In this document: positions 4,729-22,116 of the stretch, piece after piece | How positions within the stretch are numbered: position 1 is the stretch's first letter | Layout of the letters: every line of letters begins with the position of its first letter | Virus record (IMG/VR): IMGVR_UViG_3300037424_000925 | Coordinates: 1 to 62,443 of that record | Strand: one strand, 5' to 3' | Source of the DNA: a virus | Taxonomy: Duplodnaviria > Caudoviricetes | DNA: 62,443 nucleotides | Made by a program: the position numbers and the translations under genes | Notes under the pieces: generated by a model | Databases searched by the model: none | The model's input: the letters and a program-made list of their open reading frames with translations, nothing else | Told to the model about the DNA's origin: nothing

Positions 4729-5652
4729 CTACGCCGCCTTCCGGACCACTCGCTTCGTAGTCCCATCGCTCGACAACCCGGAGATATCCCCGATGTTGTC
4801 AGCCATGCTCTTGAGGCCCGCCGCGAACTGCTGTGAAAAGTCCCAGTTCCCACGGATATCCTTGGCTTCCACGTTTTCCAGCTCAGCTTTCAACTTCTCA
4901 ATCTCCGCCAACACATCCTGCAGGTCGAATATCTGGGCAATGTTCAGGTAATCATCGACCACCCTTTTGGGTTTCTTCAACGTCCCTTCTGTGATCTTCT
5001 GCCCCTGCTCGATCTTCTCGGATATTTCTTTGATGGCCTCCATCATGGCAGCCCGCGCCTGATCCATGATTTGCTCGGAATACTCCTCATAAGTTTCCGA
5101 TAATTGTTGCTGGAACCTGCGTTTCGCCTCTATCAGGTCCACCGGGTCAGCCTCATTGATTTCGGCGCCACGGATTTCGCAAACGTGCCATTTCACCTTG
5201 AACCTGTTCCGGATTTGCTGATCGGTTGGCCATTTGGCATCTGCCAGGATCGGATATTTCTCGATCATTTCCGTTTGAATCGCCGGCAGGTTGTTGATGA
5301 GGTCCTCGACGATTACAGCCTGATTGCTATCGATTTTCTCAAGACCGGTCTGTGCCTGCATAAAGTTCGAGTTCGGGACCAGCCAGGCCCCTCTAATGAA
5401 AAACCTTTTTCCAACGGTTGACATTAAAGATGTAACCTGTGAGCTGGGTTTCAGCATGTTAATCCTCACATCATCGGGGATGACATTCTTTCTACCCAGT
5501 TCGATGATGTCCAAGATATCGTCCGGATCCTTTCCCAGGTCAGACGCTTTCAGCTTGTCCTTGCCTGACCATGACGATACTGACGTGATCCAGATCGTAC
5601 AGTTTTGGTAAAGCTGCTGCTCTACCGTGGTTGTGTGCGTGTTCTCACTCAT
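4729..5652 (-). CDS. DUF3150-like protein
   Basis: WSGKDKL..SDLG, LGRK.VIP, RFFIRGAWLVP, RFKVKW motifs; context with AAA ATPase. Confidence 0.65.
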   Translation of the reverse strand: MSENTHTTTVEQQLYQNCTIWITSVSSWSGKDKLKASDLGKDPDDILDIIELGRKNVIPDDVRINMLKPSSQVTSLMSTVGKRFFIRGAWLVPNSNFMQAQTGLEKIDSNQAVIVEDLINNLPAIQTEMIEKYPILADAKWPTDQQIRNRFKVKWHVCEIRGAEINEADPVDLIEAKRRFQQQLSETYEEYSEQIMDQARAAMMEAIKEISEKIEQGQKITEGTLKKPKRVVDDYLNIAQIFDLQDVLAEIEKLKAELENVEAKDIRGNWDFSQQFAAGLKSMADNIGDISGLSSDGTTKRVVRKAA

Positions 5653-5739
5653 GTTTTTCTCCTCCTCCTATTTTGAATTTCCCGACGGTAATTCGCCAGT
5701 AGAAAGATCAACCACTTAGTTGACCCTTCGATTGAAGAG

Positions 5740-6153
5740 TTACCAATCACCCCCTCCAAAATCATCATTGACATACATCACGAGCTTTTTCGCCCCGGCT
5801 ATTGCAGAAGGAGCGTCCTCCCAGGCATAGTTCTTTGACTCGGCCCAGGCTATGTCCCCTTCCTGCAAATAAAACTGCTTGAAAGCCTCGCCATGCGCTC
5901 CCAACACTCCGGCCAGCCCACCACTATCCCAGAAGTCCGCTTGCACAGTGTAGCCGTTCTCAGTTCGTACAATGCCCAATTCGTAACGACACCCGGGAAT
6001 GTGAATAGCGTAATCGCAGACGCCCTTATCGTTTTTGTACCAGACGAAAGTTTTTTGGTCTAAGAACTCCCATCCTCTCCTCTGACAAAGGGCCTTGATA
6101 GTCTCAATGTCGAACTCAAGCCCTTCGGTTGAAATTGTGCTTATGTGTGACAT
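5740..6153 (-). CDS. DUF1257 (Ycf35-like) protein
   Basis: MSHISTIST...IKALC, YELGIV, ADFWD motifs. Confidence 0.7.
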   Translation of the reverse strand: MSHISTISTEGLEFDIETIKALCQRRGWEFLDQKTFVWYKNDKGVCDYAIHIPGCRYELGIVRTENGYTVQADFWDSGGLAGVLGAHGEAFKQFYLQEGDIAWAESKNYAWEDAPSAIAGAKKLVMYVNDDFGGGDW

Positions 6154-6166
6154 TTTCACTCCTCCT

Positions 6167-6379
6167 TCATCTCACCCATCGTGTTTGATTGCTTTCGTAA
6201 ACCGTGGGTTCGTCAGCGCAAACCGATATCATCTCTCCACAACTTGGGCATTTGATATCAACGCCGTCCACCAAGTCTAAGTAGGTCGCATCTATGCCCA
6301 AATGAAAACCACAGGAGCATTCAACGACTTCCAGCGAAAATTTCTCAGTTTCCACATCACCCACACAGTTTACTGACAT
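6167..6379 (-). CDS. Small Zn-ribbon protein
   Basis: CSCG...CPSCG; GAGGTG RBS before ATG 6379. Confidence 0.6.
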   Translation of the reverse strand: MSVNCVGDVETEKFSLEVVECSCGFHLGIDATYLDLVDGVDIKCPSCGEMISVCADEPTVYESNQTRWVR

Positions 6380-6560
6380 CACAAAGCACCTCCCCCTCGA
6401 AATATGACGGCTTATAATCCATCGTCTTGACTTGTCCGTGCCTTTCTTCGATTTCCCGCGTCGCTTCCTTACAACTGCCTCCCTCGTACCCGAAGGCCTC
6501 GACCCGGGTGCTTCCGTCCGGTAAATATTCAATCTCGATTCTTTTCATTTTGCTCTGCAC
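6357..6560 (-). CDS. DUF2997 family protein
   Basis: RIEIEYLPDGSTRVEAFGYEGGSCKEATREIE motif. Confidence 0.75.
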   Translation of the reverse strand: MQSKMKRIEIEYLPDGSTRVEAFGYEGGSCKEATREIEERHGQVKTMDYKPSYFEGEVLCDVSKLCG

Positions 6561-7023
6561 CCTCCTTCCATTTCTCAGAACTCAAATTTATCATACACTT
6601 CTTGCAGCTCGACTGCCGACCATCCGATGCTCCCTCTTTTTTGTGGTAGTCAGCCAGGGCCACATCATCCCCACACGTGCAGCATACTTTTGAAAGTGTG
6701 CCCACCCTAATTCGCGTGTAGTGCATATCACACAGGCCACTTGAGGTCACTGCCCTGCGGCAATTTAACACCGAACACACCTTGAACGGCATATCCAACC
6801 ATAACCCGGTTATTTCTCGGCCTTGCTCGCACTGCAAGCAATTAACATCCATCGACTCTACTGTGTACAAAGATTTTTGTTTGCGAATGGCTTTTTTCAG
6901 CCTTGCTTTGCATCTCGATTTCAGCATGATGCAGTTGCAACGGTCACAAAGGAAGAAATCTTCCGGGCTAAGCCCCGGATAAGTAGCAACGATCTCTTGT
7001 ACTCTTAAGTTCACTGCCTCCAC
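6529..7023 (-). CDS. Multi-Cys (Zn-binding) hypothetical protein
   Basis: CSVLNC..GLCDMHY and KVCCTC..DG..SSCKKC modules of the kind seen in phage endonuclease accessory domains. Confidence 0.55.
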   Translation of the reverse strand: MEAVNLRVQEIVATYPGLSPEDFFLCDRCNCIMLKSRCKARLKKAIRKQKSLYTVESMDVNCLQCEQGREITGLWLDMPFKVCSVLNCRRAVTSSGLCDMHYTRIRVGTLSKVCCTCGDDVALADYHKKEGASDGRQSSCKKCMINLSSEKWKEGAEQNEKNRD

Positions 7024-7203
7024 CTCCTTTTCTCAGATTGTTTGCTTTATTGCCTTAATCGCTTCAGTCTGCCCACCATCCCTCGATGGTGAGCAGGTGC
7101 AGGGATTAAAGCCAAAGGTATTCCAATTGGCAACGAAGCCCGCTGTTGTTAATGCTCGTCGCTTCCTCTGCTTTTAAATCGTGGACTAATTCGTCAAGCT
7201 CAC

Positions 7204-8730
7204 TCATGCCACCTTCCTCCCTTTCTTGACCTTTCGGCCGCTGTCAGTTATCGACTGCACTTTCCCGCCGGCAGGCTTATCGCTCGCCCAGATACAAACC
7301 CCACGGGCTTTCGTGCGGATCTCTTCCAGCTTCTCAGCATGGGCTTTCCCATAAGGCAGGACGTAATCACTGGCCTCTTCCGCAGAACATCCCATCATAG
7401 ATATGGTTTCTGCCAGCTTCGCAATGTCGGCGCCGCTGTACCCATCAAGAGAGAAATTCTTGGGGATTAAAACGCCCTCTTTTTTCTCCCAAATACCGGC
7501 TATCCCACGGGCCTCCTCAGCACTCGGCAAATCGGTGAAGAAAATACCACCAAACCTTCTCAGCAAAGCTCCACCAGATTCTTGGATAAGCGGCTCAAGG
7601 GCATTACAGGTGCCTATCCAGTAGGCCCCGCATCCCCGACTGTCTTCCATTTCTCGTAATAATTCTTTGAACAAAGACTGACCGACGCCACTGTCTCCAC
7701 CGGATGAAATACCGGAAGCTATCGCCTCGATCTCATCCATGAAGACAACGCATTTTCCCACCGCGCGGATGGTCTTGAAGGCATCTCTCAATCTTCCTTC
7801 TGCAACCCCCTGGTATCTGTCTTTTAAAGCGGAGAATCTCAGGATTAAGCATGGGATTTCCATCTCGTTGGCCACGGCCTTCGCAATATGACTTTTTCCG
7901 CTGCCTGGTATTCCAAAAATCAGGACACCCCTTGCCTTTGGGCTCTTAATGGTACTGAGGATATTCCTCTTCAGTCTTTCCAGACCAAAGATTTCATCCA
8001 ATGTCTCCGTGTAATGCCCAAACTCCAGGACTCCAGTGGCTTTCATCTGCGCCGCCTTCTGCTCCAAAATCGTCTTCACGTCAAAGCATCCCTTCATGAC
8101 CAGAGACAGCGCAAGGGCATTCTCTGCCCCTTCCCACGTCAACCCACGCATGGCATTAACGATCGTGTCCACATTTTCCGGGACTTCCATCTCGTTATCC
8201 TCGGCCATCTTCTCGACTATCCTGAGAAGCGCGGCCTCGTCCGGATACGCATAGTCAACAACTGTCACATCATCGGCCAGTTCAGGCGGGATGATCTTCT
8301 CTGCTGAAATAAAACAGATAGTCTTCGCCTGAAGTTTTAGGTTGGATTTCAAGTTCAGTGCCGCCCGGGTGATCGTGATCTTCTCGAAGTATTTGTGATA
8401 ATCCTTCATGAAGATCATCGCCCCAATCGGACGTGGCGGGTCACAGCTTTCGTCATACTTAATCGGCAATGATCCCGTTGCTTCCAGCGCCATACCAGGG
8501 TCAACGATTTTCCCGTTACCACCCTTCGGCTCGAAACCCGGCACAGAAATAGAACGCCAGGCCCACGCTCCTCCCCCATTCCGGACCATCGCCTGATAAC
8601 CCGCAGCAATGTCCCAGGAATAGAACTGAACATCCTCATCAAACTTCGCGCGATTTTCCCTGATTATCCGGTCTTCTTCAGTGGACTGGATAAAAAGGAA
8701 AGGATACCGCGCATCGTGGTGATGTTGCAT
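7204..8730 (-). CDS. Ycf46-like AAA+ ATPase
   Basis: Walker A GIPGSGKS, Walker B VVFMDEIE, LLRRF Arg finger; degenerate N-terminal AAA (EEDR, MKDYH); GGAGG RBS before ATG 8730. Confidence 0.85.
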   Translation of the reverse strand: MQHHHDARYPFLFIQSTEEDRIIRENRAKFDEDVQFYSWDIAAGYQAMVRNGGGAWAWRSISVPGFEPKGGNGKIVDPGMALEATGSLPIKYDESCDPPRPIGAMIFMKDYHKYFEKITITRAALNLKSNLKLQAKTICFISAEKIIPPELADDVTVVDYAYPDEAALLRIVEKMAEDNEMEVPENVDTIVNAMRGLTWEGAENALALSLVMKGCFDVKTILEQKAAQMKATGVLEFGHYTETLDEIFGLERLKRNILSTIKSPKARGVLIFGIPGSGKSHIAKAVANEMEIPCLILRFSALKDRYQGVAEGRLRDAFKTIRAVGKCVVFMDEIEAIASGISSGGDSGVGQSLFKELLREMEDSRGCGAYWIGTCNALEPLIQESGGALLRRFGGIFFTDLPSAEEARGIAGIWEKKEGVLIPKNFSLDGYSGADIAKLAETISMMGCSAEEASDYVLPYGKAHAEKLEEIRTKARGVCIWASDKPAGGKVQSITDSGRKVKKGRKVA

Positions 8731-8830
8731 CTCATTTACCTCCTTTCTCGGTTTATGTTTACTTTCTGACACATCCATGAAGGCCCCGGCGTTTCCGGTA
8801 CCGGGACCTTGAGCATGGGTCAGGATATCA

Positions 8831-10037: not shown

Positions 10038-11354
10038 TCAGACCCTCATGGGCATAACGAGAGCATGGTAACTCTCAAACCCCATGACAATGGGCTTGTT
10101 TCCCGTGTCGAACATGATGTGGAGGTCTTCACTTTCAATGGGCTTCATGGCATCAAGAATAAACTGGCCATTGAACCCAAACGTGACCTCCTCGCCATCA
10201 GGGTAATTCTTCGACTTTACAGGGATGGATATTTTCTGGTACTCTCCCTTCTCCGGATTGGTAAAATCAACATCAATCCCGCCATTGAACTTCAGCTTGA
10301 TTGAACTGTACTTTTCCCCGGTGATGGTCATGGCTTGCTGCAGTGGTGTCTCCATGTCAGCCTTTAGGATAGTCAGGCTTTTCTCGGGCTCCGATGGAAC
10401 AACAACTTTCCATGCCGGGAACCTGCTCTCCATCGCACGGATATACAGCATTCCACCTTTTTCTCCGAAAGGAACCGAAATCATGTGTCCGGCAGAGTTC
10501 ATCTGGATGTGGATAAGATCCTCATCCGCGAACAGTGCTTTGAACATTTTCACGGCGTCTATCGGGCAGGTGAACCCGCCAAGGCCTTCAGGCGAAACAA
10601 TATTCTCAGCATCCAGGCTCGACCAATGCAGCCTGTGCCCATCCGTTGCCACCGCGGCCAGGTTTTCCCGATCTTCCAGGTCAAAGTATATCCCCTTCAG
10701 ATTAAATCCCTGATCGTCCTTCTTTTGGGCAGCCATCGAGACATTCACCAAATTTTTCTTGGTGATGTTGATTGTCGTATCATGGCCGACCTCTTCATCG
10801 AAGGATGGGAACTCATCCACGTCGAACGTAGCCAGGCCCGTAAAATTCTGGCCTATCCGAACCCTGGGCGCTCCGGTCTTGAAAAGCAGACCGTCCTCGT
10901 CGCCCGTCCTGGTGATCTCCACTTCTTCATCGGTTAGGGATGATAAAATCTTTCCCAGATCCTTGGCGGAGATGCAGAATTTCTCGTTCCAGGAGCTTTC
11001 TTCTGTGGACGCGTTCTCGCAGGCTTCCAGGATTACTGTACGCATGGCAGGAACTGTGGCTTTTCCCGGAAAGGATATTCCATAGTCCTCGGCCAACTGC
11101 TTCAGCTGTGGCCCTTTCAGCCCGTCAATCCCGTCTTCCCCGATCACACCGTCAATGCCTTCAGCGGGCATCGTCCGTCCGTAATCGGAAATTTCCAGCG
11201 GAATCTTGACGGCCATCTCCAGGTCAGTCGCTATCAGCTTCTGTCCGGCGCCATCCAGTACAACGCAACTCAGGATAGGGAAATTTCCACCTTCCTTGGC
11301 TACCTTGGATGCAATCTTCACTGCCGCTGTTAAACTTTTCCTATTTATTTTCAT
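10038..11354 (-). CDS. dnaN: DNA polymerase III beta sliding clamp with N-terminal helical insertion
   Basis: PILSCV, ATDLE, AVATDGHRL, RFPAW..V.P, FGFN..FILD, LVMPMRV signature motifs. Confidence 0.9.
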   Translation of the reverse strand: MKINRKSLTAAVKIASKVAKEGGNFPILSCVVLDGAGQKLIATDLEMAVKIPLEISDYGRTMPAEGIDGVIGEDGIDGLKGPQLKQLAEDYGISFPGKATVPAMRTVILEACENASTEESSWNEKFCISAKDLGKILSSLTDEEVEITRTGDEDGLLFKTGAPRVRIGQNFTGLATFDVDEFPSFDEEVGHDTTINITKKNLVNVSMAAQKKDDQGFNLKGIYFDLEDRENLAAVATDGHRLHWSSLDAENIVSPEGLGGFTCPIDAVKMFKALFADEDLIHIQMNSAGHMISVPFGEKGGMLYIRAMESRFPAWKVVVPSEPEKSLTILKADMETPLQQAMTITGEKYSSIKLKFNGGIDVDFTNPEKGEYQKISIPVKSKNYPDGEEVTFGFNGQFILDAMKPIESEDLHIMFDTGNKPIVMGFESYHALVMPMRV

Positions 11355-13242: not shown

Positions 13243-14139
13243 CTACACGGCCACGGCCTCTTTGGGGGCGTTGATTTCCTTCTTCGCTTCAAAGGCAGCC
13301 AATTGCTCCAGGGTTTTCTCGGCAATCCGCTTCATGCTCTGGAAAGTCAGTTTCAATTTTCCCACATCCCGTTTCCGGGCGTTGATAACATTCGGATCAC
13401 CAACCCAGTCTTTCTCGTAACTGGCAATCATCTTCTCCAGTTTCTCACTCGCTTTTCTCGCCTTACTCAGCCCGCCATTTTCCCCAGCCTCTTTTTTGGC
13501 CTGTGCGAAAATATCACGCTGATTTTGTTTGTCCAGGTACGCCTGAATCGCCGCCAGCATTTGACTGGCTTTATTCTTGTCCTTCAGGCAGCTGTTGAAA
13601 ACGTGCATTTGTTGTTGGGCGCTCTCGAAGGAGGTCGCCAATTTTCTCGCCACGTCCTTTGATATTTTCCCGTCATCCACAAACTTATGGAGTTCAGGCG
13701 CCAGTCCGCACAATTCCAGGTCCGACTTGATCGTAGCGACACCAACCCCGTGAATTTTCGCGACACGATTGATAGACAGCCCATGCTCATCAACCGACCG
13801 CTGATAACTTCTCGCCCGATTCATGATGCTCAAATCTTCCCGGTTCGCATTCGCCATAAGCTGTTTTTCCCACACGTCCCGCTTGCTGATACCGTCATAC
13901 ACGAAGCACGGAATTTCCTGCAAGTTCGCCAGCATGGCAGCCTTGGTGCGCCGGTGGCCGTCGATCACCTGATACTCACCGTCAGGAACATTTTCCGGGG
14001 ACCAGACTGTTATCGCCTGATCGTCCATGAAACCGGCAGCTTTCATGCTGTCAGCCAGTTCCTCAATCCCCGTATAAATTTCTCGGGGTTGTTCTGGGTC
14101 CAGGTGGATCTTCGTCACTTCAATTTTTCTCGTTTCCAT
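13243..14139 (-). CDS. parB: ParB/RepB/Spo0J family protein (ParB CTPase domain + HTH)
   Basis: PEQPRE, IEELADSM, VIDGHRR, ANANREDLS followed by HTH. Confidence 0.85.
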   Translation of the reverse strand: METRKIEVTKIHLDPEQPREIYTGIEELADSMKAAGFMDDQAITVWSPENVPDGEYQVIDGHRRTKAAMLANLQEIPCFVYDGISKRDVWEKQLMANANREDLSIMNRARSYQRSVDEHGLSINRVAKIHGVGVATIKSDLELCGLAPELHKFVDDGKISKDVARKLATSFESAQQQMHVFNSCLKDKNKASQMLAAIQAYLDKQNQRDIFAQAKKEAGENGGLSKARKASEKLEKMIASYEKDWVGDPNVINARKRDVGKLKLTFQSMKRIAEKTLEQLAAFEAKKEINAPKEAVAV

Positions 14140-15965: not shown

Positions 15966-16397
15966 TGAACGCCATTCGGTATATGAATGTTATTCAGATT
16001 ATGAACGGTATTTAGATAATGAATCGCATTCATATAATGAACGCTACTCACTTTGTGAACGCTATTCATCTCTTGAACGTGGTTCATAATCCGAACGTCA
16101 TTCAGTTAATGAACCTTACTTAGTTAGTGAACGCCATTCGCTTTGTGAACGTGGTTCACTTGCTGAACACCATTCGGTTACTGAATACCATTCGATTTAC
16201 GAACTCCATTCAGTTGCTGAACGCCATCCATCTACTGAACGTCATTCAGTCTCCGAATACCGTTCACTTGTCGAATAGTATTCAATGTCTGAATGCCCAT
16301 CAGTTATTGACCAGCTTTCAAATGTCGAATGCCTCTCGATTACTGAAAGTAAGTCACTTGTCGAATGGTATTCGGTTTACGAATACTGTTCACTTTT
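15966..16397. repeat. Tandem array of 24 x 18-bp units, consensus YGAAY-NNN-RTTCR-N5
   Basis: Exact 18-bp phase held for all 24 units; each has a 13-bp imperfect palindrome. Confidence 0.95.
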
Positions 16398-17900: not shown

Positions 17901-18295
17901 TTATCTTGTCTTGTCTTGTCTTGTGGTCTGTCTGCTGTCTTATGTGTCTTGTGTGTGTCTGCTGTCTTGTCTTGTGGCTTGCCTACTGTCTTGCCTACTG
18001 TCTGCTGTCTGCTGTCTGCTGTAGTTCTTAATAAAGCGAATGATGACTACCAGGGATTAGTGTACTATTGTAATATTGTAATATTGTATTGTATAGTCCT
18101 CTATACTAATTGATGACAGCCCATAATATGGGAGGCTATGCCCATGCAAGCGCCTGTATACTGTATATTGTATACTGTATACTGTATACCGTATACCGTA
18201 TACCATGCCCTTAACACCTGTTAACTTAACACCTGTTAACCTTGCATTTATGCAATGGTTAAAGGTGGACTAAGTGGACTTAGTCCAATGGACTA
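17901..18295. repeat. Cluster of simple repeats and palindromes
   Basis: (TTGTC)n/(CTGTCTG)n 17901-18022; (TATTGTAA)n ~18066; 7 x YYGTATA 18154-18202; 2 x CTTAACACCTGTTAA; palindrome TGGACTAAG..CTTAGTCCA. Confidence 0.85.
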
Positions 18296-18593: not shown

Positions 18594-18622
18594 TTGACAC
18601 ATTTTGGCTGTGTGGTCATAAT
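18594..18622 (+). promoter_or_regulatory. Sigma70-like promoter of HTH-HTH-RAMP-array operon
   Basis: TTGACA-N17-CATAAT. Confidence 0.7.
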
Positions 18623-18674: not shown

Positions 18675-19043
18675 ATGAAGGGATTGAGTGAATTGCGAAA
18701 GGTTTTATTAATTAAAGGGGTTACGCAGCGTGAATTGGCTAAATTATCGGGGCTTAATGTAGCCGTAATAAGCCAGATTGCGACTGGTAGAGTGATCCCT
18801 ACTGCAGATGAGCGAGCACGGATTTCAGAGATTTTAGAAGAAAGTGAATCGGAATTATTTGGATTTGCGTTGCAAATGTGTAATTGTCCATATTGTGGGC
18901 ACGCGATATCTCACTCGGGATTTCAGGGGGATGAGATAGCCAACGGGGTGTGCCTGGTGTGTTCTTCCTGCGGGGGTGTTTTTCGGATTTATCCTTATAT
19001 GGGTGATGTGTCTAAGGTGGTGATCACGAAGGATGGATTTTAG
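18675..19043 (+). CDS. XRE/Cro HTH regulator with C-terminal Zn ribbon
   Basis: GVTQRELAKLSGLNVAVISQIATGR; CPYC...CSSC. Confidence 0.8.
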   Translation: MKGLSELRKVLLIKGVTQRELAKLSGLNVAVISQIATGRVIPTADERARISEILEESESELFGFALQMCNCPYCGHAISHSGFQGDEIANGVCLVCSSCGGVFRIYPYMGDVSKVVITKDGF

Positions 19044-19045
19044 AT

Positions 19046-19354
19046 ATGGGCGTGCATGCGAGGGTGCCTGAAGGGGCGATATTAGAGGTTTTGAGGGGTG
19101 AGAAGACGCAGAGTGTTGTGGCGAGGGAATGGGGGGTTAGTCGGCAGGCGGTGAGTGAGCGTGTGTGGAAGGTTGAGGGGATGCCTGAGCGTGCTGAGAG
19201 GGTGAAGCGAGTTCCTGTGGAGCTTCCTATGGAGCGTGCTGAGTGCCCTGGGCTGTCTGCTGAGGATACTGCCATCATCAACAGTGATTGTGACTGTGTT
19301 GTAGGCGACGAGGAGTGTGGGGATGATTTAAGTGGTTTTTGTTTGGAGCTGTAA
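19046..19354 (+). CDS. HTH protein with Cys-rich tail
   Basis: TQSVVAREWGVSRQAVSERV. Confidence 0.65.
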   Translation: MGVHARVPEGAILEVLRGEKTQSVVAREWGVSRQAVSERVWKVEGMPERAERVKRVPVELPMERAECPGLSAEDTAIINSDCDCVVGDEECGDDLSGFCLEL

Positions 19355-19398
19355 GGAGTCAATCGATAACAATCGAAGTTTTAAAAAGGGGGAGAATA

Positions 19399-20010
19399 AT
19401 GGGTGAGGAATTTGGGAAAAGAGAAGTGACGATCCGGTTTACTGAAAAGATGTTGGGTACGGTGCCCAAGGATAAGGAGATTTACAAGACCTATATCGCC
19501 GGGAAAAAGGCTGACTTGGAAGAGGAGTGGTTGAAAGAGGAAGTGGAGACCGTGGAGCAGGCGGAAGAGAAGGGCTGGACCGGGTTCCATAAAGATGAAA
19601 AAGGGCTGTTTTTGTTTGACTATCTGATAAAGGGTTTTCTCAAGAGCGGTATGGAAGTGAGCATGGAAATGGGCGCGGTGGATAAGGTGGTGGCATATAA
19701 AAAGTGGATTGATTTATCCGTGTTTGTGTGGCCGAGGAGAATTTACCTGGGGATAATGGAGCCTGACGGGGTACTTGAAAGGCCTCTTAGGACCATGACT
19801 CCGAAAGGGCCGAGGGTGGCATTGAGCCGAAGCGATTATGTGAATGAGGGGAGGGAATTGACATTCGAGGTGGAGATTTTGAAAAACAAGAAAGGTCTGG
19901 ACTGGGATGCCATAGAGCAGGCGTTTGACTATGGGCGATATGTGGGTTTGGGGCAGTGGCGGGGGAGTGGTGGGTACGGGCGGTTTGAGCTGGTGGGGGA
20001 TGGGGAGTGA
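19399..20010 (+). CDS. Stand-alone Cas7/RAMP-like protein (203 aa)
   Basis: N-terminal strand + LGT, IKGFLK helix (cf. LKG.LR of Cas7/Csm3), SDYVNEG.ELTFEVEI, C-terminal G-loop GLGQWRGSGGYGRF; GGGAG RBS. Confidence 0.75.
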   Translation: MGEEFGKREVTIRFTEKMLGTVPKDKEIYKTYIAGKKADLEEEWLKEEVETVEQAEEKGWTGFHKDEKGLFLFDYLIKGFLKSGMEVSMEMGAVDKVVAYKKWIDLSVFVWPRRIYLGIMEPDGVLERPLRTMTPKGPRVALSRSDYVNEGRELTFEVEILKNKKGLDWDAIEQAFDYGRYVGLGQWRGSGGYGRFELVGDGE

Positions 20011-20011
20011 T

Positions 20012-20507
20012 GGTAAAGTAACGTGGAGTAAAGCACGGTTACGGTAATGTAAAGTAATACATGGTATGGTGGTGTTGAGTAACGGCAGTGTGTGGTTGGG
20101 TGGGGTGTCGGCATGGTTAGGATCGGTTCGGTGGTGGTAATGTTTGGTAGGGCAGTGTGTCGCGATGGAACTGTGGGGTTAAGTGGAGTGCGAGTTTGGT
20201 AAAGTGAAGTGGAGTACCGGTAAAGCGAGGCGTGGTTAGGCGCGGTTTGGGAATGGTAGAGTATTGTGATGTGTTGGTGATGTAATGTGATGTGCGGTCC
20301 GGTCTGGTTTTGGTAATGTAACGTAAGGCTGTGTAATGGCAAAGTGACGTTGGGTATAGTTACGTAATGGTTTGGTCTGGTAAAGTTCTGATGGGTAGAG
20401 TGCGGTAAAGGAATAGTAATGTTACGTAATGTGACGTATTGGTGATGTCGGGTGTGACAAGGTGATGGCATGGTTGTGAACAGCTCGGTGGGGTAACGTG
20501 GGGGCGC
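20012..20507 (+). repeat. Pentamer array: 96 NGY-NN pentamers in 16 units of 5n+1 nt; putative guide-RNA array
   Basis: Parsed by hand; starts 1 nt after RAMP stop; G at pentamer position 2 in 93/96, pyrimidine at position 3 in 88/96; every unit ends in one extra pyrimidine. Confidence 0.85.
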
Positions 20508-20532
20508 GGCGAAGGGAGGATGGTTGGATAAA

Positions 20533-20718
20533 ATGATTGAAACCAAGGTGAAACTCAGGATAGCGTGTGAGGTTTGTGAGGGGACGGGGAGGATACCGTC
20601 GCAGAATAAGGGTGGGTTATACGACACCATTTACTGCCCTGACTGCCGTGGGGAAAAATCTTATGAGGTTTGGATATCTATTACGAAGTTTAAGGCGATG
20701 TTGGACAGGTTGGGTTGA
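20533..20718 (+). CDS. Small DnaJ-type Zn-finger protein
   Basis: CEVCEGTG...CPDCRG. Confidence 0.6.
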   Translation: MIETKVKLRIACEVCEGTGRIPSQNKGGLYDTIYCPDCRGEKSYEVWISITKFKAMLDRLG

Positions 20719-20728
20719 AGGGGTGTAA

Positions 20729-20980
20729 TTGATAGCGATTGGGACCGGCACCTACGATCACGATACCTCTCCCACTTATAATGGGACAACCTGTTCTAAT
20801 GGGGCTTCTTCTTTGGTTGTAGCCTATGTGAATGTTGTCTATTATCGGTGTAATGATACATTTGTTGATGATTTAAAACTCATAGACCCTTTTCCTGAAC
20901 CTGATTGGCCTGAGTTGAAACCGGTGGTAGTGAATCCTGTGAAGAGGATGGGGCCAAAGGTGAGTGGTAGGTTTAATTGA
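20729..20980 (+). CDS. Hypothetical protein
   Basis: ORF with RBS, in operon direction. Confidence 0.4.
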   Translation: MIAIGTGTYDHDTSPTYNGTTCSNGASSLVVAYVNVVYYRCNDTFVDDLKLIDPFPEPDWPELKPVVVNPVKRMGPKVSGRFN

Positions 20981-21060
20981 AAGATTTTAAGATGTAATAG
21001 AAGAGGGATTGGTTTGAGGCTAAGAAAGGTGAGATGAGGAAAATAATCGGGGGAGGTTGA

Positions 21061-21249
21061 TTGATTATGGAAATATCGTTCAAGATTTTGGGTCGGAATA
21101 TTAGGATAGGGCGTGATTTCAAGAAGTATAAGGGGCTTGATGTGGTTTTTGGGTCTATGGTGTTTGCGACGATGTTTGTTTTAAGTATCCCGTTGATGAT
21201 TGCCGGATTCCGGTGGCATAGGACGGTGGGGAAGATTAATCATGGCTAA
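21061..21249 (+). CDS. Small membrane protein
   Basis: GGAGG RBS; one TM helix. Confidence 0.5.
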   Translation: MIMEISFKILGRNIRIGRDFKKYKGLDVVFGSMVFATMFVLSIPLMIAGFRWHRTVGKINHG

Positions 21250-21859
21250 AGGTAAAAAAAAGGGATCGGAGGTGACACAGTCTCCTGTTCCTGAGCAGAT
21301 AGGGACGAGCGTGGGGCACGTTGAGGGGAAGCAGTTACGATTCTTGGCGCACGTGGCGAGATGCGGGGGGGAACGTTGCCGGATTTACGATATGTGCCCG
21401 TACAGTGGGGAAACAGACCGGTCGGAGAGGTGCGCGTTGCTGCATCGGTACTTGAAATCGATGTATCAGGATTGGGTGGACCCGAAGAACGGGTTGGGGG
21501 ACGTGCTGACGCAGATACAGTTGGACCGGTTGGGGAGTCATGTGATGCCGCTGTATCATCATTTGGCGATGTTTGCGTTGGAGATTGCTGACTTGCCTAA
21601 GACGACGTACACGAATAAACAGGGAAATTGGATGGCGTACCCGCAGTTTGGGGAGATGAGGGCAACGATGCAGCAGATCCGGGCTGAGGTAAAGGATTTG
21701 AAGTTGGATGCGCTGTGGGAGAAGAAGTTTGGGGGTGGGGTGGATGGTAGGAGCTTGCCTGCGGGCGGGGGCGCGATGAATTTGGACGATATTTATCAGC
21801 ATGGTCGGCGGGGTGCGTATGAGGAGTTGGTTGACCGGGCGCATAAGAGGGAGGCATAA
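21242..21859 (+). CDS. Possible terminase small subunit with N-terminal Cys cluster
   Basis: YTNKQGNWMAYPQF...MQQIRAEVKDLKL resembles the C-terminal half of P27-type TerS; CxxxxC..CPY..C. Confidence 0.45.
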   Translation: MAKGKKKGSEVTQSPVPEQIGTSVGHVEGKQLRFLAHVARCGGERCRIYDMCPYSGETDRSERCALLHRYLKSMYQDWVDPKNGLGDVLTQIQLDRLGSHVMPLYHHLAMFALEIADLPKTTYTNKQGNWMAYPQFGEMRATMQQIRAEVKDLKLDALWEKKFGGGVDGRSLPAGGGAMNLDDIYQHGRRGAYEELVDRAHKREA

Positions 21860-21891
21860 GAAATTGAAAAATTGAAAAAGGAGGCTGAAAA

Positions 21892-22116
21892 ATGAGGGGC
21901 ACTGTAGCGAAACGTATTCGGAAAGAGGTGTACGGGGATTTCTCTACCAGGGAGCGGACGTACAGGGTGAAATGGTACGAGAAGATTTTGAAATCGAAAA
22001 ATAAAGATGAGGAGGACCGGAAGGTCCGTACCGGGACTATCCGCGATTTTGGATTGAGGGCAAAGTATCAAGCGGCGAAGAGGGCGTATTATCTCAATGG
22101 TGCTACCATTGGCTGA
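21892..22116 (+). CDS. Basic hypothetical protein
   Basis: GGAGG RBS; MRGTVAKRIRK. Confidence 0.6.
   Translation: MRGTVAKRIRKEVYGDFSTRERTYRVKWYEKILKSKNKDEEDRKVRTGTIRDFGLRAKYQAAKRAYYLNGATIG

Follow-up and report, generated by a model that had tools for sequence, protein, structure and literature searches.

What does an intergenic tract of 496 nt encode when it counts in fives along its whole length and slips by a single base at irregular intervals, and do those slips divide it into individual guide RNAs, as an earlier note on this DNA had proposed? The tract lies in a virus record from IMG/VR that carries terminase-like, head protease/portal and major head protein genes and was analyzed over its full 62,443 nt (the window). 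It sits in the rightward early region, in the gene order HTH protein, weak winged-helix-like ORF, vipr, array, 61-aa zinc-ribbon ORF, ERCC4 nuclease and D5-type primase-helicase.

The array occupies positions 20012-20507 on the plus strand and comprises 96 pentamers of the form N-G-Y-N-N in 16 units of 5n+1 nt, the units starting at 20012, 20043, 20084, 20110, 20136, 20167, 20198, 20219, 20255, 20276, 20312, 20338, 20369, 20415, 20441 and 20467. The division into units that the earlier note had drawn from the letters was reproduced in full: the units hold 6, 8, 5, 5, 6, 6, 4, 7, 4, 7, 5, 6, 9, 5, 5 and 8 pentamers and one extra base each, giving lengths of 31, 41, 26, 26, 31, 31, 21, 36, 21, 36, 26, 31, 46, 26, 26 and 41 nt. 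Cut at these starts, the extra bases of units 1-16 read C, C, C, T, T, T, C, T, T, T, T, T, T, T, T and C. A single T at 20011 (plus strand, read from the sequence) separates the vipr stop codon TGA (20008-20010) from the first GGTAA, and the first unit is therefore also preceded by a pyrimidine; at its 3′ end, the array stops at the ribosome-binding site of the next ORF. The tract contains 198 G, 145 T, 108 A and 45 C. Within the pentamers, G is found at position 2 in 93/96 and a pyrimidine at position 3 in 88/96, G at position 1 in 50/96, and positions 4 and 5 are variable. The pentamers that open a unit are distinct from the rest: 14 of the 16 units start GG[CT], as had been noticed, with G1 in 15/16 openings compared with 35/80 internal pentamers (Fisher p = 2e-4) and A4 in 13/16 compared with 28/80.

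These regularities were recovered by a dynamic-programming parser whose score depends solely on G2 and Y3 and which admits slips of −2, −1, +1, +2 and +3 at one equal penalty. The parser returned a tract of 97 pentamers (20012-20512) with 16 slips, every one of them +1, confirming that the phase always shifts in the same direction and by the same amount. Its slips coincide with 12 of the 15 internal junctions given above and fall exactly one pentamer earlier at the other three (20193, 20250 and 20410, rather than 20198, 20255 and 20415), whereas its 16th slip, at 20503, falls at the array end that had been set at 20507. The shifted placements fit about equally well, with one imperfect pentamer either way, and would make the extra base G, G and A, respectively. 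The claim that every unit closes with a pyrimidine thus holds for all 16 units as cut at the listed starts but unambiguously for only 13, and the ambiguity, which had been confined to unit 6, extends to three junctions, with the remainder coinciding.

The parse score of the array is 132.7. Mononucleotide shuffles of the tract (n = 1000) gave a mean of 8.3 (sd 2.1, maximum 20.8) and dinucleotide-preserving shuffles (n = 1000) a mean of 11.4 (sd 3.2), the highest score in all 2000 being 26.9, with slips distributed over all five kinds; this was the composition-matched control that the earlier note had called for, and a chance origin of the parse is excluded. The rest of the window contains no second array on the plus or the minus strand (the highest remaining score is 11.5), and a G periodicity of 5.15-5.2 nt is restricted to approximately 19950-20550. 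The units are indeed all different, as no pair of at least four pentamers within the window array reaches 75% agreement at the variable positions, and Tandem Repeats Finder (TRF) reported only short imperfect periods of 5-21 nt on the tract. The predicted fold of the array RNA is weaker than that of shuffled sequences (z = +1.51; 94/100 shuffles fold at least as well), and the RNA is accordingly predicted to be unstructured. Searching the whole window against Rfam at gathering thresholds returned no family, hence no hammerhead or other known RNA, and blastn of 19300-21300 against a phage collection gave no match.

The gene that abuts the array, vipr (19399-20010, plus strand), starts at an ATG preceded by the ribosome-binding site GGGGGAG and encodes a 203-aa single-RRM RAMP (Cas7-like), the presumed binder of the array RNA. 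No Pfam domain was found in the 203-aa protein, and the family to which it belongs, comprising 555 proteins at E ≤ 1e-3 in a metagenomic protein collection, is almost entirely without a name. An AlphaFold (AF2) model built from the family alignment (pLDDT 87.6, pTM 0.81) gave Cas7 of type VII, Csm3 and Cas7-11 as its top Foldseek matches (E 2e-6 to 1e-4), and 92 PDB chains were matched at E ≤ 1e-3 with a TM of about 0.5; judged by its modeled fold, the protein is a RAMP. Its C-terminal G-loop, GLGQWRGSGGYG (G-L-G-Q-W-R-G-S-G-G-Y-G-R-F), is invariant or nearly so in the family alignment.

Three 2026 bioRxiv preprints, cited here as far as their text is accessible, describe VIPR, Viral Interference Programmable Repeat (10.64898/2026.04.26.720920, 10.64898/2026.04.26.720927 and 10.64898/2026.10.15.759431). 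In the first, Vipr is a minimal phage-borne RAMP and VIPR a CRISPR-like RNA-guided DNA silencer, in which the guide, or vrRNA, consists of YNNGG pentamers in tandem; double-stranded DNA is read by their NN bases, and one base of the target is skipped (10.64898/2026.04.26.720920). The same work distinguishes seven VIPR types among 667 representative loci, with NNNGG, YNNNG and NNNNG as alternative repeats, and describes, besides tailed type II arrays with vrRNAs of 9-16 repeats and a pseudoknot tail, ‘staggered’ arrays of overlapping, butt-joined vrRNAs, termed ‘1-nt overlapping’ in a figure legend (10.64898/2026.04.26.720920). In the accessible part of that preprint, sRNA-seq confirmation is stated only for ribozyme-interspersed arrays and single-vrRNA systems (10.64898/2026.04.26.720920), so the staggered layout appears to be a computational call there too. 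For SUSP1, one Vipr protomer is reported per repeat, with the constant GGY sequestered and each GGY held jointly by two neighboring protomers, G1 being contacted by H17 and D177, G2 by R138 and W178, and Y3 by R179 among others; the filaments have six subunits per turn, and five when target-bound (10.64898/2026.04.26.720927). The third preprint calls vrRNAs as GG[C/T]NN units and scans for targets as NN?NN (10.64898/2026.10.15.759431). VIPR is thus newly reported, and is proposed to be older than CRISPR; as far as the accessible text goes, the bench study concerns tailed type II arrays only.

The features that define these systems are found together in the window: a small single-RRM RAMP with a glycine-rich loop and, in the model, a thumb; a pentamer array that flanks vipr on the same strand and is intergenic; and a viral carrier, VIPR being found mainly in viruses and proviruses. 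The staggered systems, as far as they are described, share with the window the phage-borne single-RRM RAMP gene and the same-strand intergenic pentamer array in which constant G/Y alternates with variable bases, and the window repeat matches the YNNNG variant named in the methods of the first preprint (10.64898/2026.04.26.720920). Sequence similarity to the characterized SUSP1 Vipr is weak. A profile of the window’s family had one match in the whole phiSUSP1 genome (KT454805.2), to the 200-aa vipr ORF (E 0.0023), and matched the ‘SUSP1 Vipr protein’ among PDB sequences weakly (E 0.34); phmmer with the C-terminal 94 aa gave no match in PDB sequences. In hhalign, the G-loop GLGQWRGSGGYGRF aligned to GVGDWR--PRFGRF of SUSP1 (E 4.4e-4, probability 34%, 43 columns). 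Because the sequence similarity is weak, the assignment to VIPR rests mainly on the fold, the G-loop motif and the array. The G-loop W and R that contact G2/Y3 in the SUSP1 structure are invariant in the window’s family, and the Asp that contacts G1 in SUSP1 is replaced by Gln in at least 90% of its members, a substitution that would fit the relaxed G1 of the internal pentamers, though the alignment is short. Taken together, positions 19399-20512 very probably constitute a VIPR locus of a tailed phage with a tail-less, ‘staggered’ vrRNA array. The array is a member of a kind of system already present in the 2026 preprints, with a well-populated family, and is not a new kind.

To define the grammar of the array beyond a single example, 40 non-redundant related loci were collected from IMG/VR, which yielded 33 relatives, and from bacterial and archaeal MAGs by searches with the protein and the alignment. 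In 34 of these 40 loci, the parser placed an array next to vipr and in the same orientation, mostly downstream and in three loci upstream; of the six loci lacking a call, four show a 5.15-5.3-nt period beside vipr and one terminates at the gene. The array calls, 36 in all, are without exception on the vipr strand, and five of these stretches score on the opposite strand as well. The two strands score about equally at 3562-3984 of L035/L036 (108.6 and 105.4 in L035), 3710-4373 of L042 and 3620-4408 of L044; the pentamers there are therefore partly self-complementary in pattern, with G-Y on both strands. In a set of 37 distinct arrays, to which the window and three metagenome loci contribute, the parse counted 2280 regular steps, 464 slips of +1 and 40 other slips, so that 464/504 of all slips are +1. 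The 464 units are most often of 5 (146), 6 (125), 4 (72) or 7 (50) pentamers, within a range of 1-15. The extra base at the 464 +1 junctions is T in 151, A in 123, C in 121 and G in 69, and pyrimidines thus make up only 59%. The proposal of the earlier note that Y|GGY junctions delimit the guides is not borne out in that form by these counts; the closing pyrimidine is a trait of the window array and not of the family. With a parse that ignores position 1, G1 is present in 362/418 post-slip pentamers and 534/2090 internal ones, and A4 in 268/418 and 815/2090, respectively, and the commonest unit starts are GGCAA, GGTAA, GGCAT and GGTAT. The general boundary mark is the GGYA at the unit start, with G1 of the next pentamer accompanied by A4.

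Comparison of closely related arrays addresses whether the units have any reality beyond the parse. Relative to L011, locus L012 has an insertion of 36 nt (7×5+1), beginning with GG and located between two units; the difference between L017 and L016 amounts to 26 nt (5×5+1); and in L051 a 31-nt unit (6×5+1) separates two units that directly follow each other in the window and L050. The other indels in the L011/L012 and L016/L017 alignments comprise a single one of 5 nt, a pair of 1 nt each and a block of 21+16 nt. The Vipr proteins of L050 and L051 are 95% identical to that of the window, and the same zinc-ribbon ORF is present in both, yet the window shares only 4 of its 16 units with them, in the same order (20167, 20219, 20250 and 20467), and at the other places L050 and L051 carry units that differ from those of the window. 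The final unit, ahead of the following gene, is retained by all three. The gain and loss of whole units that the earlier note had suggested looking for in related arrays was observed, with guide sequence turning over as complete 5n+1 units between nearly identical phages, and three independent comparisons support the view that units behave as separate modules. A side observation concerns the first pair, as L011 (a Thermodesulfobacteriota MAG) and L012 (an Aenigmarchaeota MAG) carry vipr arrays that are almost alike (column identity 86% along ~600 nt), for which one virus lineage binned into different MAGs is the likeliest explanation.

Substitutions follow the position within the pentamer. Between L016 and L017, the substitutions at positions 1-5 number 12, 1, 17, 5 and 7 of 49, all 17 substitutions at position 3 are C/T exchanges, and N4 and N5 are the most conserved of the variable positions; in the units shared by the window, L050 and L051, positions 2 and 4 never differ (0 of 22, 21 and 21). 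Small as the numbers are, the pattern is as expected if G2 is fixed, Y3 may be any pyrimidine, N4 and N5 are informative and N1 is less constrained.

By analogy with the characterized systems, the array would be transcribed together with vipr, as shown for type II, and one Vipr protomer would bind each pentamer, sequestering the constant G-Y (GGY in SUSP1). The exposed variable bases would pair with double-stranded DNA belonging to a competing mobile element, skipping one base of the target at each repeat, and this pairing would silence the target DNA. Comparison of the sequences shows the array to be a chain of 16 modules, each with a GGY(A) start, 4-9 pentamers and one base; each module may correspond to one short guide of about one filament turn, with the phase slip stopping one filament and starting the next. 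The grammar can also be written in a simpler form, in which a unit is (G-Y-N-N-N)n plus a closing G that is the first G of the next unit’s GG. The length of 5n+1 then follows without any special nucleotide, the ‘extra base’ becoming the last N of the closing repeat, and in this form the grammar equals the ‘1-nt overlapping’ staggered layout, as far as the preprint describes it, once that layout is put in the GGY frame. Since each GGY is held by two protomers in the accessible account of SUSP1, a guide could plausibly end in a closing half-site. The interpretation of the earlier note, an array of delimited guides on a protein filament, is partly supported: a Cas7-like gene adjoins the array and the units behave as modules, and the junctions may be processing sites or filament boundaries.

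A difficulty with this interpretation is the small amount of information in each unit. Under the published NN rule, a unit of 4-7 pentamers specifies 8-14 bases, compared with the 9-16 repeats of characterized vrRNAs, and with so few guide bases independent action of each unit is not assured, raising the question of how 8-14 guide bases give useful specificity. Units may cooperate, or N1 may be read too. A codon test of N4-N5-N1 triplets gave a difference too small to tell whether N1 is read, with 65 sense stops observed and 88.5 expected, and 68 antisense stops observed and 59.2 expected. Targets were sought locally with 356 family units of at least five pentamers against 283 kb (the window and 37 loci), under five pairing rules. 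The numbers of perfect matches for observed and shuffled guides were 154 and 163 (NNx), 4 and 1 (NNN contiguous), 1 and 0 (NNNx), 158 and 158 (NN contiguous), and 160 and 141 (NNxx); there was no enrichment under any of the five rules in these 283 kb. When IMG/VR was scanned under the NNx rule for the 18 guide bases that unit 13 provides, a single exact match was returned, at 1159-1184 of L047, a count that is, on a rough estimate, about the chance level. In this match, the skipped bases coincide with third codon positions in an ORF on the minus strand, as would happen by chance in one case out of three, and agree with the N1 bases of unit 13 in 1/8.

It is possible, but rather doubtful, that this Vipr family runs a distinct mode of VIPR, with tail-less guides of 4-7 repeats (about one filament turn) that are joined end to end by a shared G, with G1 of the repeat freed and Gln standing in for the G1-contacting Asp. 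If so, each repeat would have to supply a third guide base (N4-N5-N1), or neighboring units on a single RNA would have to cooperate, for the guides to be specific; neither arrangement has been described experimentally. The loci show how guide boundaries can be written with a one-base phase slip and GG alone, and that G1 is dispensable in a family with Gln instead of Asp in the G-loop. The GGYA unit start, the unit-size mode of 5-6, whole-unit turnover and Gln at the G1 position were not found in the accessible part of 10.64898/2026.04.26.720920. The window and its ~40 relatives provide a clean natural data set for the staggered architecture and testable rules for calling vrRNAs in metagenomes.

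The modular reading competes with one in which the locus is VIPR but the units are not separate guides, and long stretches or the whole 496 nt form one filament and one guide, the extra base being a tolerated bulge, for instance as strain relief about once per helical turn. The lack of tails, hairpins or ribozymes between units would be expected from such an arrangement, as would unit sizes that peak at 5-6 pentamers, near the 5-6 subunits that one turn of the SUSP1 filament reportedly contains, and the few guide bases in a single unit would pose no difficulty. However, a bulge set by filament geometry sits poorly with unit sizes that vary from 4 to 9 in the window and from 1 to 15 in the family, with the gain and loss of whole units, one of them inserted between units that are adjacent elsewhere, and with a conserved GGYA motif that opens each unit. 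A continuous filament is therefore considered unlikely, though it merits more attention than the readings in which the tract is no vrRNA array. One of these takes the array as double-stranded DNA, in which a half-helical-turn motif would give the nearby replication genes an origin, an iteron field or a platform for binding. The mean period of 496/96 = 5.17 bp does place two repeats at 10.3 bp, near the helical repeat, and the ERCC4 nuclease and D5-type primase-helicase genes lie 1.6-2 kb downstream, but the motif is strongly strand-asymmetric and on the vipr strand (in 36 array calls, five of which score on both strands), the conserved partner in the 40 loci is the RAMP gene and no replication gene, and a separate field of 18-bp inverted repeats resembling iterons is present at the strand switch. 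Such a role is highly improbable.

The two remaining readings can be given almost no credence. TRAP binds sites of ~11 (G/U)AG triplets spaced 2-3 nt apart, a 5-nt step, through an 11-mer ring, and the five-nucleotide spacing of the array resembles such sites; the array could then be bound by a TRAP-like ring protein and act as an RNA sponge or attenuator, paired with the zinc-ribbon ORF that lies directly 3′ of it (20533-20718, plus strand; 61 aa, CXXC motifs, ribosome-binding site GGGAGGA) and matches Pfam Anti-TRAP with E 1.1e-6. That match is below the curated cut-off (29 vs 32 bits) and overlaps the generic DnaJ CXXCXGXG zinc motif, which is matched below its cut-off as well, and the conserved core of the array is G-Y at positions 2-3, not (G/U)AG. 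The ORF, a possible accessory gene, has the same start after the arrays of L050 and L051, the two closest relatives, and tblastn found no match to it in the 40 other loci, which retain the array. Equally remote is the idea that the tract is minus-strand coding sequence or a compositional accident of a G/T-rich region. An open frame of 233 aa (19929-20630) does span the tract on the minus strand; it overlaps the 3′ end of vipr and the start of the next gene, has no Pfam or PHROG match, and could not produce a 5-nt period with +1 slips as a codon pattern. The GC skew is indeed ~+0.5 throughout the surrounding 3 kb (19000-22000), the coding parts of vipr and its neighbors included, far above that of the rest of the genome, but shuffles of the same composition never approached the parse score.

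The reading as a VIPR locus with a modular vrRNA array leaves the wider neighborhood to be described. Upstream of vipr, the 102-aa ORF at 19046-19354 (plus strand) is weakly winged-helix-like, with KorA and MarR_2 matches below cut-off, and is a candidate DNA-binding neighbor; tblastn found no match to it in the related loci. Beyond near-identical loci, no conserved neighbor (vap) gene common to the 40 loci was detected by tblastn and flanking-ORF clustering. The best promoter-like site, a consensus match only (11/12 positions), lies at 18594-18622 on the plus strand, upstream of the string of HTH, winged-helix-like, vipr and array; no promoter-like or terminator-like site was found between vipr and the array, nor a terminator-like site just 3′ of the array. 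Ahead of this rightward operon, an intergenic run at 17904-18240 contains pyrimidine-rich short tandem repeats (TCTTG x13, CTGTCTG, CTGTATA x7 and a 15-mer x2) that do not fit the vrRNA parser on either strand. The other arm of the genome encodes ParB (13243-14139, minus strand), a sliding clamp (a phage-borne DNA polymerase III beta clamp, 10038-11354), an AAA ATPase together with a DUF3150 protein (4729-8778, minus strand) and a methyltransferase fused to DUF4942 (153-1832). Positions 15966-16270, at the switch of gene orientation and GC skew and 1.8 kb from ParB, hold ~18 tandem copies of an 18-bp unit with TGAAC-N4-ATTCA-like inverted half-sites and look like an iteron or centromere field.

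Among the VIPR systems, type II provides the closest characterized reference. The SUSP1 Vipr is, like that of the window, a protein of ~200 aa with the G-loop core G-x-G-x-W-R...G-R-F, and in the pentamers of both, positions 2 and 3 are occupied by G and Y, respectively. Run through the same parser, the SUSP1 arrays gave 13-15 strict GGYNN repeats, no slip and a conserved tail of ~40 nt each, whereas in the window array tails are lacking, units comprise 4-9 repeats and each ends in a +1 slip, and just 35/80 internal pentamers carry G1. Membership in type II itself (the SUSP1/P. fulva clade, with 9-16 strict YNNGG repeats and a structured 3′ tail) was accordingly rejected for this tail-less array. 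A CRISPR array, which would consist of identical direct repeats of ~24-40 nt with unique spacers and cas genes nearby, was likewise set aside, as there is no near-identical unit pair and Pfam/PHROG annotation revealed no cas families among the window neighbors; the window has neither direct repeats with spacers nor adaptation genes. The relationship to class 1 CRISPR-Cas lies instead in the effector. Cas7/Csm3 on crRNA and Vipr share the same fold, and in both a filament measures the guide in fixed steps with thumb-flipped bases, the step being 6 nt with one base sequestered in class 1 CRISPR-Cas and 5 nt with 2-3 bases sequestered in VIPR. Where CRISPR-Cas marks its units with repeat hairpins, the array described here marks them with a phase slip.
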